Assembly (NCBI RefSeq): GCF_024223415.1
Contig: NZ_CP100507.1
Strand: one strand, 5' to 3'
Origin: Escherichia coli
GTDB taxonomy: Bacteria; Pseudomonadota; Gammaproteobacteria; Enterobacterales; Enterobacteriaceae
DNA: 4,051 bases
Part shown: positions 1,172 through 3,798 of the stretch, one piece after another
Layout of the letters: the number at the start of each line of letters is the position of its first letter
How positions within the stretch are numbered: position 1 is the stretch's first letter
Position numbers and translations under genes: made by a program
The notes under the pieces: model-generated
Told to the model about the DNA's origin: nothing
What the model saw: only the letters and a program-made list of their open reading frames with translations
Database searches by the model: none

Positions 1172-1205
1172 GTAAACGAAAAAACCGCCTTGCAGGGCGG
1201 TTTTT
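1172..1205 (-). terminator. RNA I terminator hairpin (also stem-loop I of RNA II on the plus strand)
   Basis: ccgcc(t)-tgca-(g)ggcgg stem at 1185-1200, flanked by an A-run (1179-1184) and a T-run (1201-1205). On the minus strand the hairpin is followed by TTTTTTCGTTT. Confidence 0.75.
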
Positions 1206-1278
1206 CGAAGGTTCTCAGAGCTACCAACTCTTTGAGCCGAGGTAACTGGCTTGGAGGAGCGCAGTCACCAAAACTTGT
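1172..1278 (-). ncRNA. RNA I antisense copy-number regulator (~107 nt)
   Basis: The minus-strand 5' end ACAAGTTTTGGTGACTGC aligns with pMB1 RNA I ACAGTATTTGGTATCTGC. The 3' end is a GC hairpin (1185-1200) followed by a T-run on the minus strand. RNA I is fully complementary to the RNA II 5' end. Confidence 0.85.
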
Positions 1279-1932: not shown

Positions 1933-2127
1933 TTATATCCCGGTGCGATTTTCCGCTTCAAAGCGTGTCTGTATGCTGTTCTGAAGTTCTTCCGCGAGTT
2001 CGTGCAGCTTCTCACACATGGCGGCCTGTTCGTCAGCATCAAGTGCGTCCAGTTTTTCGAGCAGCGTCAGGCTCTGGCTTTTTATGAATCCTGCCATGTT
2101 GAGTACGGTTTGCTGCTGCTTGTTCAT
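1933..2127 (-). CDS. rop: Rop/Rom, RNA I-RNA II kissing-complex modulator (64 aa)
   Basis: MNKQQQTVLNMAGFIKSQSLTLLEKLDALDADEQAAMCEKLHELAEEL... aligns by eye along its length with pBR322 Rop (MTKQEKTALNMARFIRSQTLTLLEKLNELDADEQADICESLHDHADEL...). Its position and orientation relative to the origin match pMB1. GGAG lies 11 nt upstream of the ATG. Confidence 0.93.
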   Translation of the reverse strand: MNKQQQTVLNMAGFIKSQSLTLLEKLDALDADEQAAMCEKLHELAEELQNSIQTRFEAENRTGI

Positions 2128-2958: not shown

Positions 2959-3225
2959 TTGGTTAAATTACTATTGGTGAGAAATGAATATTTCAATAAA
3001 AACAATGACTTAAAAACCGTTGCTCGGTTTGACGGTAAAACCTTAAGAGATGCCTTTTCGAGAAAAATAGCGACTTTTGATGGCAAGGTTTTAAGGGATG
3101 CCTCTTTAAAAAAAGTAGCAACCTTTGACGGTCAGAATTTAAGAGATGCTAGTTCAAAAATTATCCTGAGTGCCGATGCTGAGGTTGGGATTGTTGTTAT
3201 GGCCTTTGTAGCTGAGTTGATTTGA
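2959..3225 (+). CDS. Hypothetical small protein with three 16-aa tandem repeats and a hydrophobic C-terminal tail (88 codons from TTG 2959; GTG 2977 is an alternative start)
   Basis: Open frame from 2959 to TGA at 3223-3225. The repeats are VARFDGKTLRDAFSRK / IATFDGKVLRDASLKK / VATFDGQNLRDASSKI. The conserved residues use different synonymous codons between copies (gac/gat/gac, ggt/ggc/ggt, aga/agg/aga, gcc/gcc/gct), which argues for selection on the protein. Against: no in-frame ATG before codon 82 and no recognisable Shine-Dalgarno. Confidence 0.55.
   Translation: MVKLLLVRNEYFNKNNDLKTVARFDGKTLRDAFSRKIATFDGKVLRDASLKKVATFDGQNLRDASSKIILSADAEVGIVVMAFVAELI
3019..3162 (+). repeat. 3 x 48-bp diverged tandem repeat (3019-3066, 3067-3114, 3115-3162), in frame with ORF 2959-3225
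   Basis: Hand alignment gives about 31/48 identical nt between copies 1 and 2. The period is a multiple of 3, and much of the variation within the conserved F-D-G-x-x-L-R-D-A core is at third codon positions. Confidence 0.85.
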
Positions 3226-3507
3226 ATCTCATGCTGCATACCTTTTAGCCTATCGCTGGCAGGATAAGGCGCTTTCTTGTTGGTGACAGAAAGATAAAAA
3301 ACTTTATAATAATCAGCGAAGCGGGCGAACCACGCCTGGCTCTCGCTCTTTAACAAATGGTTACGTGTATGTTGCGCAAGGAAACCGATGCCTTGTTTTT
3401 AAGGCGATCTCGCATGAGATCATGACCGGCCTGGCCGCTAATTAATGGTGAGAACGCCCCTGAGCGTGTATCAGCACTAAAAGAATAGCGACGATTGTCT
3501 GGCAATG

Positions 3508-3520
3508 TGAGTTAAAAGTC
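3508..3520 (+). repeat. Inverted repeat arm a1 (candidate)
   Basis: 13/13 complementarity to 3780-3792. Confidence 0.7.
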
Positions 3521-3594
3521 CCAAAGAGCCAATAGAGTTTTTCCTTGCTTTCCTACTGGTCTGGCAAAATTTCATAACCAATAGGAGTTGCATC

Positions 3595-3777
3595 ATGTTT
3601 ATTATCAACATCAACATTAACGTAACCAAGAGCTCTTCATCTTGTTCTGGAGACGGTCAGATGAAGAAAAAAAGAGAGGTTGGCTCTCTGGAGGCACTGA
3701 AAAAAACACAGTTTTTGTTTTCTATGTGCTTGATTATGTTTAAAGTAATAGATTACGTATCGAAACTTTTTAACTAA
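3595..3777 (+). CDS. Hypothetical 60-aa ORF lying entirely inside the candidate retron ncRNA (internal alternative start 3661 gives 38 aa)
   Basis: AGGAG (3583-3587) lies 7 nt before ATG 3595, and GGAGA (3649-3653) lies 7 nt before the in-frame ATG 3661. The product MFIINININVTKSSSSCSGDGQMKKKREVGSLEALKKTQFLFSMCLIMFKVIDYVSKLFN is low-complexity with no motif I recognise. It may be non-coding. Confidence 0.3.
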   Translation: MFIINININVTKSSSSCSGDGQMKKKREVGSLEALKKTQFLFSMCLIMFKVIDYVSKLFN

Positions 3778-3779
3778 TC

Positions 3780-3792
3780 GACTTTTAACTCA
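3780..3792 (+). repeat. Inverted repeat arm a2 (candidate), preceded by a degenerate tandem copy at 3765-3776 (ACTTTTTAACTA vs ACTTTTAACTCA)
   Basis: 13/13 complementarity to 3508-3520. The adjacent near-duplicate offers an alternative pairing register. Confidence 0.7.
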
Positions 3793-3798
3793 AACATC

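Follow-up and report, generated by a model that had tools for sequence, protein, structure and literature searches.

The window analysed here, 4,051 nucleotides (nt) of Escherichia coli DNA (contig NZ_CP100507.1), is a whole circular 4051-bp ColE1-type plasmid, opened within its reverse transcriptase (RT) gene, and it carries Retron-Sen1 (Se72), which is placed in type V in the classification of Mestre 2020. A perfect 13-bp inverted repeat immediately upstream of the RT gene, here called helix I2, is a real, evolutionarily conserved RNA helix under selection. It encloses a ribosome-binding-site (RBS) hairpin and a 60-residue gene, the reverse-transcription template lying most likely just upstream of it, and in our judgement it is probably the closing long-range helix of a type V leader RNA built like the hybrid RNA (hyRNA) of type VI retrons. 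The element is assigned to Retron-Sen1/Se72 because of the match of its RT to the RT_V family, the match of the neighbouring protein to the type V effector and the alignment of its leader with the Sen1 non-coding RNA (ncRNA) of a published retron census (PMC10849725). The RT is a continuous open reading frame (ORF) of 379 amino acids (aa) across the plasmid junction (3799-4051 and 1-887) that scores 423 bits against PADLOC RT_V (E = 2.6e-127), followed by RT_VI with 242 bits and RT_IV with 219 bits. Directly downstream lies a cold-shock-domain (CSD) protein of 67 aa (892-1095; Pfam CSD) that matches PADLOC CSD_V with 85.7 bits and NCBIfam NF038236 with 85.2 bits against a cutoff of 82, and that RefSeq, with the same product name as NCBIfam, calls 'retron Se72 family effector'. 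The census ncRNA corresponds to window positions 3358-3628 with two 1-nt gaps. A first-pass annotation of the window had already read the locus as a retron, and these matches confirm it. All features described below lie on the plus strand unless stated otherwise.

The proximal arm of I2 (TGAGTTAAAAGTC, 3508-3520) and the distal arm (GACTTTTAACTCA, 3780-3792) are perfect reverse complements that span 285 nt, and 6 nt separate the distal arm from the RT ATG; the first-pass annotation had all of these coordinates right. The distal arm also begins 3 nt past the stop codon of the small ORF described below. By a rough estimate, an AT-rich sequence of 4 kb has a chance of a few percent of containing some perfect inverted repeat of 13 bp within 300 nt, so that one sequence alone is no more than suggestive. 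In dinucleotide shuffles, at least two arm matches with at most two mismatches were found in only 2 of 200 cases. When the 302-nt region around the repeat is folded, the arms are paired with z = -3.9, and an equally good fold was obtained in 0 of 100 shuffles, so that the folding check suggested in the first-pass annotation turned out in favour of the repeat.

The comparative evidence is what led us to accept the repeat as a conserved helix. About 100 loci with relatives of the RT were gathered, with RT identities from 100% down to 33%; the diverse ones came from searching metagenomic and viral sequences with an alignment of RTs, while a scan of genome contigs with the single RT protein returned two near-identical loci only. 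Covariation was computed on a plain MAFFT alignment of 44 diverged type V leaders. The first-pass annotation had proposed a search for compensatory changes in the arms, and these are abundant: all 13 pairs of I2 are changed on both sides somewhere in the alignment, with 81% of cells paired. Covariation of the whole structure amounts to 0.364 against 0.183 in shuffles (0 of 500 as high), and controls in which the partners were slid by 1-3 columns gave 0.09-0.15. Arms from the same locus pair with a score of 26.0, against 17.6 +/- 3.8 for arms combined across loci, and 27 of 48 loci lie above the cross-locus 95th percentile. Nearly every locus has such an inverted repeat, with a 3' arm that separates the small ORF from the RT start and a 5' arm placed 290-360 nt upstream, and the arm pairs differ in sequence yet stay complementary, as in TGAGTTAAAAGTC/GACTTTTAACTCA, GAGAAAAGAGTC/GACTCTTTTCTC, GGTTAGGAGTTA/TAACTCCTAACC, GCAGACACCTG/CAGGTGTCTGT and many more. 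A chance repeat is ruled out by this covariation. An intrinsic terminator was also considered and rejected, as the helix is long-range and a terminator scan found none on the plus strand.

The proximal arm continues directly into a further helix, I6, whose 5' strand (3521-3532) pairs with 3680-3691, inside the small ORF at the codons for VGSLE (12 nt, 92% complementary). Changes on both sides are seen in 12 of 12 pairs, and 71-84% of cells are paired among the 44 leaders. This helix holds G3528, which had been put forward in the first-pass annotation as the branching G. The residue does lie 8 nt past the arm, within AGC, but it is not conserved, its column reading G in 23 leaders, A in 8, T in 7 and C in 6, and given its place within a covarying helix it is not an unpaired branch G. 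A degenerate tandem duplicate of the distal arm (3765-3776) had likewise been noted as a possible second pairing register. It matches at 8-9 of 13 positions in the window and its closest relatives, whereas elsewhere the match is at chance level; the second register was rejected, as it is not conserved beyond those closest relatives.

Several observations concern the outer end of the distal arm. In loci whose RT starts near this arm (the deep clade L080-L090 as well as L006, L018, L021, L022 and the window), no G is found between arm and ATG, and the start codon supplies the first one. In several others the helix is prolonged outward by pairing of GCGTAAA with TTTTTGC, and a TTGC motif is present; a looser pattern (TTGC or TTTG followed by a pyrimidine) matched 18 of the 44 loci.

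Between the arms of I2 lies a gene. An ORF of 60 aa (MFIINININVTKSSSSCSGDGQMKKKREVGSLEALKKTQFLFSMCLIMFKVIDYVSKLFN, 3595-3777), unannotated in RefSeq and here called the small protein (SP), is recognised by its conserved frame and Shine-Dalgarno (SD) sequence. Each of the 44 aligned leaders, at RT identities down to 33%, has an ORF of 59-75 aa that begins at the ATG shared in the alignment, an SD-like motif precedes it in 41 of 41 loci, and gene callers predict it in metagenomic relatives as well. Over 2642 codons from 41 non-redundant loci the SP frame contains 0 stop codons, while 243 and 271 were counted in the two alternative frames. Its SD, AGGAG (3583-3587), sits in the 3' strand of a predicted hairpin of 38 nt (3550-3587), the RBS hairpin or riboregulator, and is in silico largely paired: its probability of being unpaired averages 0.17, that of the segment 0.43, and the SD value stays under 0.4 in 37 of 41 loci.

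The SP proteins are alike in pattern, not in sequence: short alternating hydrophobics at the N-terminus, a polar middle with K/R-x-(V/I)-(G/D) and a hydrophobic C-terminal third. AlphaFold, at a mean confidence score (pLDDT) of 60, models a helix at residues 31-59 with pLDDT of about 85 and nothing confident before it. Searches of the SP against Pfam, PADLOC and NCBIfam gave no family match, and a profile built from 37 family members retrieved 22 called proteins among 5.8 billion, all labelled 'hypothetical'. In the literature searched, type V is described as RT, CSD protein and ncRNA, and the small ORF appears in none of the classifications or hidden Markov model (HMM) libraries examined. Synonymous rates of the SP are three- to ten-fold below those of the RT for the same locus pairs (0.29 vs 1.04; 0.057 vs 0.635), which is the signature of a coding sequence that is also bound to keep RNA pairings and points to strong nucleotide-level constraint on the whole SP ORF.

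Two hairpins are predicted in the 3' part of the ORF, at 3692-3731 and 3732-3779; in both, the base is 68% paired and most pairs are changed on both sides. The former includes the hairpin 3694-3729, which had been taken in the first-pass annotation for a plausible msd stem. As a hairpin it is real, with its GCAC...GTGC base, and in Klebsiella it carries a compensatory change (AAAACA/TGTTTT to AACCCC/GGGGTT), but it is SP coding sequence that encodes the hydrophobic C-terminal helix and bears no mark of a template.

The hairpins that do resemble an msr-msd lie on the other side of the proximal arm. Two msr-like hairpins, A (3390-3405; 82% paired) and B (3406-3421; 97% paired), show two-sided changes at 5 of 6 pairs apiece. 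They are followed by the nearly invariant ATCATGACCGG (3419-3429), which ends the msr-like module in the leader alignment, and then by a variable, long, msd-like hairpin of 53 nt in the fold (3437-3489). The msr-msd is thus misplaced in the first-pass annotation, which had it between the arms. In the usual msr-then-msd pattern, conserved small hairpins stand ahead of a long variable one, and 3437-3489 is most likely the msd stem-loop. From ATGACCGG to the proximal arm the segment measures 66-88 nt (median 79) in 42 loci; its sequence is variable and a stable hairpin is always present. A conserved mini-hairpin, GAC-NGTT-GTC (3490-3499), precedes the first copy of a direct repeat, and in the leader alignment the block GCGAC-N-GTT-GTCTGGC is followed at once by the proximal arm.

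Further upstream, a predicted promoter-like site (GTGACA, a 16-nt spacer and TATAAT; 3283-3310) with 11 of 12 consensus matches is likely, by its sequence, to be the start of the retron leader transcript, and similarly spaced -10-like elements can be seen by eye in the leader alignment. It is followed by a 5' hairpin, P0 (CGGGCG / CGCCTG, 3322-3338; 95% paired, 2 pairs changed on both sides), and by the nearly invariant GCTCTTTAA box (3345-3353). A 5' hairpin with a (G)CTCTTTAA / GTTCTTTRAA box is common to type V and type VI leaders (window 3322-3353; about 945-975 in the type VI locus L103 and about 868-900 in L104); a protein-binding site and an element of the transcript 5' end are both possibilities for it.

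A second helix system crosses the first. Helix I7 is a perfect 9-nt pairing of GCAAGGAAA (3376-3384) with TTTCCTTGC (3540-3548), in which 9 of 9 pairs show two-sided changes and pairing holds in 82% of cells across the 44 leaders. Beside it, helix I1 pairs 3358-3374, used as a1 of Retron-Sen1 in the census, with 3612-3628 at SP codons 6-11 (17 nt, 88% complementary). The plain MAFFT alignment placed I1 and the RBS hairpin poorly (41-52% paired). Given this misalignment, I1 was judged by anchored tests of own-locus against cross-locus pairing, with the 5' window fixed as the 20 nt before I7. Own-locus pairing was 20.3 against 13.0 +/- 2.9 across loci, with 26 of 42 loci above the 95th percentile, and in most loci the SP ORF has run for 17-31 nt when the 3' arm is reached. 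I1 and I7 cross I2, since they enclose its proximal arm and not its distal arm. Pseudoknot-free folds of the two alternatives are nearly isoenergetic (-137.5 vs -135.2 kcal/mol), and on this modelling I1/I7 and I2/I6 may form a coexisting pseudoknot or alternating states. A tandem CAACAT CAACAT lies at 3606-3617, and the inner part of the 5' arm of I1, ATGTTG (3369-3374), could pair with either unit, in registers 6 nt apart.

A direct repeat links the two halves of the leader. Of two exact copies of the 9-nt sequence GTCTGGCAA, the first (3497-3505) stands immediately before the proximal arm and the second (3559-3567) straddles the inner stem and the loop of the RBS hairpin; both are found in nearly all loci. 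In the main clade the 7-nt cores of the two copies are identical in 33 of 34 loci (permutation 0 of 5000), including loci that depart from the standard GTCTGGC and share GTCAGGC, GTCTGGA, GTCTGGT, GTCAGGA or GTCCGGC; the deep clade shares GTTGAGCGA, TGATGAGCA and ACGTGCAA. The column-based comparison of cores is the usable test here, and seven deep-clade loci are misaligned in it by about 4 nt. A 9-mer best-match statistic hardly separated own from cross loci because GTCTGGC is common to most of them. That the copies change together suggests pairing between one of them and the complement of the other, and a DNA copy would supply this complement: the predicted cDNA 5' end could form 9 bp with the second copy, at -16.1 kcal/mol.

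From the helices, the ORF, the co-variation of the repeats and the shared layout, all of which are established, we infer a possible course of synthesis, its priming and the role of the SP. A single transcript would carry, in order, the 5' hairpin and box, the msr-like hairpins, the msd hairpin, the first repeat copy, the proximal arm with 3521-3532, the RBS hairpin, the ORF and the distal arm. Pairing of 3508-3532 with 3780-3792 and 3680-3691 would fold the ORF back on the reverse-transcription module. Since the end of the distal arm would then abut the template just 5' of the proximal arm, DNA synthesis may start opposite about 3507 and run leftwards through the repeat, the mini-hairpin and the msd hairpin; 72 nt of synthesis would end at 3436, one base past the hairpin base, and the predicted template is 3436-3507. 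Priming could be by a free RNA 3'-OH (self-priming) or by a 2'-OH. The 5' end of the DNA, complementary to the second repeat copy, could unfold the RBS hairpin and thereby turn on the SP, as proposed for type VI.

Much of this must be read against the published record. The element is already known as the type V retron of a small plasmid of Salmonella Enteritidis (Rychlik 2001; Pilousova and Rychlik 2011), and the inverted repeat itself is probably already in the literature. A 72-nt DNA and anti-phage activity have been reported for the near-identical Salmonella element, and Se72, among the retrons tested for anti-phage defence, has been reported to guard RecBCD. Simon 2019 described Se72 as being without an apparent priming G, with no 2'-5' branch observed, and mentioned an 'ORF flanked by repeat regions', which very probably corresponds to the present ORF and repeat. 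In the census (PMC10849725) the Sen1 ncRNA is bounded by the I1-type pair and is without the distal arm, and the Sen1 construct, with its donor at ncRNA 203-220, which is in the RBS hairpin, gave a measurable but very low 0.198% precise editing in human cells, 1.7x that of Eco1. A second 'bacterial donor location 83;129' given there for Sen1 corresponds to window positions 3440-3487, the top of the msd-like hairpin. For the type V retron of Haliea (L053) the same census bounded the ncRNA by the I2-type pair, without the upstream part, and found no reverse-transcribed DNA (RT-DNA). The census boundaries for these two type V retrons are non-equivalent and incompatible. The Haliea null fits our preferred hyRNA-like architecture and could also reflect a missing CSD gene or a low baseline. 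In the literature searched, we found no family-wide small ORF in type V, no covariation of crossing helices, no concerted repeats and no homology of layout with type VI.

A number of points weigh against the hyRNA-like leader and the course of synthesis drawn from it. The accepted effector of Se72 is the CSD protein. The dN/dS of the SP is 0.25-0.7, compared with 0.08 for the RT, and its differences are spread almost evenly over the three codon positions; given that RNA structure constrains synonymous sites, dN/dS is not a clean coding test here, and the count of stops per frame took over from it for that reason. The co-varying repeats are by themselves silent on which copy is the template, and the position of the 72-nt template rests on inference and on secondary sources. 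An alternative 72-nt template, 3540-3611, contains the 38-nt hairpin 3550-3587. The duplex part of the DNA product from the Salmonella plasmid is said to be about 38 nt, to which 3550-3587 is a better match than the 53-nt hairpin 3437-3489. Se72 DNA is also said, in a paper of 2001, to be detectable without phage. As for the priming chemistry, self-priming would need an RNA 3' end made just upstream of the RT gene. A 2011 paper on Se72 speaks in its title of 'self-priming initiation', which would suit the extension of an RNA 3' end that I2 holds in place, a lead and not evidence. The distal arm is followed by no conserved G, in line with Simon 2019, and the editing obtained with the I1-bounded census construct (PMC10849725) counts on the same side as these objections.

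That editing result also speaks for a more conventional account, in which I1 supplies the a1/a2 arms of a canonical retron, G3374 (UUG|CGCA) primes synthesis on the template 3540-3611, and I2, together with I6, is only a structural or regulatory clamp that folds the small ORF back on the ncRNA. I1 covaries when anchored beside I7 and was taken as the Sen1 boundary in the census; 72 nt counted from 3611 end at 3540, the edge of I7; the template would include the 38-nt hairpin; and UUG|CGCA after the arm resembles the UUAG|CGCA of the type IV Retron-Eco6 in the census. We nevertheless regard this account as rather unlikely. It conflicts with the absence of an apparent priming G and of a 2'-5' branch in Se72 (Simon 2019), it would put the SP start codon and RBS within the template, and it runs counter to type VI, where the msDNA (multicopy single-stranded DNA) was mapped to the long stem-loop of the first arm and not to the RBS riboregulator (Zhang et al., bioRxiv 10.1101/2025.10.22.683967). 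The editing value is itself near the low Eco1 baseline, in a measurement of which RT-DNA was not part, and the second census donor in the upstream hairpin indicates that the authors were not committed to the RBS hairpin.

Two further accounts give I2 a different role. According to the first-pass annotation, I2 forms a1/a2, the msr-msd lies between them with G3528 as the branch and 3694-3729 as the msd stem, and a longer cDNA is processed to 72 nt. The helix is indeed real and conserved, the hairpin 3692-3731 is moderately conserved with compensatory changes in Klebsiella, and the census drew another type V ncRNA with I2-type boundaries; yet that construct, with exactly these boundaries, gave no detectable RT-DNA, the interval is filled by a conserved ORF with its SD, the conserved msr-like hairpins are outside the arms, the supposed branch G is variable and base-paired, and no Rfam retron family matches the window, which makes this account highly improbable. 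It is also improbable, if somewhat less so, that I2 has no part in priming and mainly controls translation of the RT or marks the site where leader and RT mRNA are cleaved apart. Here one can point to the distal arm, which sits at the ribosome site 6 nt before an RT ATG that has no SD of its own and which lies between SP stop and RT start in all loci, as well as to the cleavage of the RT transcript from the msr-msd in canonical retrons (Simon 2019). In most other type V loci, however, the RT starts 20-55 nt past the arm with its own SD-like sequence, so that occlusion of the RBS by the distal arm is not conserved, and the conserved repeat block 5' of the proximal arm is left unexplained. Control of the RT would in any case be compatible with the hyRNA-like leader that we prefer.

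Going one step further, it can be speculated that type V retrons are four-part systems. The hidden 60-aa SP would be the real or a co-essential toxin, its translation gated by the retron DNA through the repeats; the interleaved, near-isoenergetic helices would act as a switch, the CSD protein would be an RNA/DNA chaperone or a regulator like the helix-turn-helix (HTH) protein of type VI, and the hybrid-RNA principle would be ancestral to types V and VI. We offer this as a tentative proposal, possible though short of probable. If a conserved SP lies masked in the Se72 leader, the assignment of the toxin needs re-examination, and if this protein is real, so does the design of minimal constructs, one of the two census boundaries for type V having made no DNA. 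The HMM sets of defence-finding tools would need updating, and the mechanism in which a DNA product switches on a toxin, recently proposed for type VI, would gain a second retron type. Mutational tests are ready-made in the co-varying repeats and the compensatory helices, and for genome editing the identity of the template hairpin decides where a donor is placed.

The remainder of the plasmid is largely backbone. A search with a 1152-base stretch returned complete 4051-bp E. coli plasmids at 100% identity and Salmonella plasmids at 99-99.6%, together with numerous partial matches to other small Col plasmids that are due to the shared backbone, namely RNAI of the ColE1-type origin (1176-1276, minus strand; Rfam 94.6 bits), rop (1933-2127, minus strand) and a mobA-like mobilisation gene (2387-2734). 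RNAI was also the sole significant match in an Rfam scan of the window to E = 10, which found no retron RNA family. An ORF of 88 aa, hypothetical in RefSeq (2959-3225), contains three tandem units of about 11 residues (ATFDGKxLRDA) and a hydrophobic tail, and it resembles the Pfam '5-fold beta-flower' weakly and below threshold (21.5 bits; cutoff 38). Plasmids of Klebsiella and Serratia with 87% identity align to the window only from about 3270 onward, which places this ORF outside the conserved retron module. The CSD gene follows the RT in nearly all of the roughly 100 loci. Near-identical copies of the plasmid also turned up in metagenome-assembled genomes labelled Oscillospiraceae and Streptococcus mitis (L003 and L004), for which binning contamination seems likelier than true hosts.

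Compared with canonical retrons such as Retron-Eco1 (Ec86) and the type IV Retron-Eco6 (Ec48), the type V leader likewise has an inverted repeat by the template and upstream of the RT, and small conserved hairpins followed by a long variable one. It differs in that its template-side arm pairs downstream, giving the order msr-msd-arm, ORF, arm, in that a protein-coding ORF lies inside the repeat, in having no conserved G at the junction and in matching no Rfam retron family. A closer parallel is offered by the hyRNA of Retron-Vpa2, a type VI retron; type VI is sister to types IV and V within RT clade 3 (Zhang et al., bioRxiv 10.1101/2025.10.22.683967). In that hyRNA the RBS and start codon lie in stem-loops, the 3' end anneals to the msr-msd arm through a1/a2-like repeats, and one of two conserved 7-nt direct repeats is in the msd and the other in the riboregulator loop. 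The msDNA is 86 nt long and is proposed to hybridise to the riboregulator and free the RBS; SP translation depends on the 23 nt at its 5' end, which carry a small stem-loop. As defined for type VI, a hyRNA is a single contiguous, enriched transcript, and its SP is toxic and comes to be translated only once msDNA accumulates. The preprint contains no extension of the hyRNA to type V.

Differences from type VI are apparent, and the absence of an HTH gene and the baseline DNA are to be added to the objections above. Type V has no HTH gene between SP and RT, whereas the HTH accessory protein of type VI represses reverse transcription, and it carries a CSD gene after the RT; in the ORF list of the window no ORF lies between SP and RT, and apart from the CSD gene there is no further retron gene. 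Se72 DNA has been reported at baseline, whereas in type VI no msDNA is detected before triggering, and, unlike in type VI, Gam alone triggers Sen1. The sequence of the type V SP is not detectably similar to that of type VI, the two direct repeats of type V change together across lineages, and its leader has a second helix system crossing the first. The likenesses, on the other hand, concern the whole arrangement. Both types have one structured leader in which the msr-msd is followed by a small ORF with its RBS in a stem-loop, the RNA beyond the ORF stop returns to pair with the msr-msd arm, and short direct repeats are placed at the msd and at the RBS riboregulator; both encode an SP with a hydrophobic C-terminal helix and an RT of the same clade 3, and both begin with the 5' hairpin and box. 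The two type VI loci in our set, L103 and L104, show the same order of elements, with the 5' hairpin, the GTTCTTTRAA box and a repeated TCGACTGG, and they have the pair AGTGACCTGTGCTGT/ACAGCAGGTCACT, whose 3' arm comes after the small ORF and whose back-pairing is seen in L103. With its lack of an HTH gene and its reported baseline DNA noted, we therefore file the type V leader as a member of the hybrid-RNA retrons.

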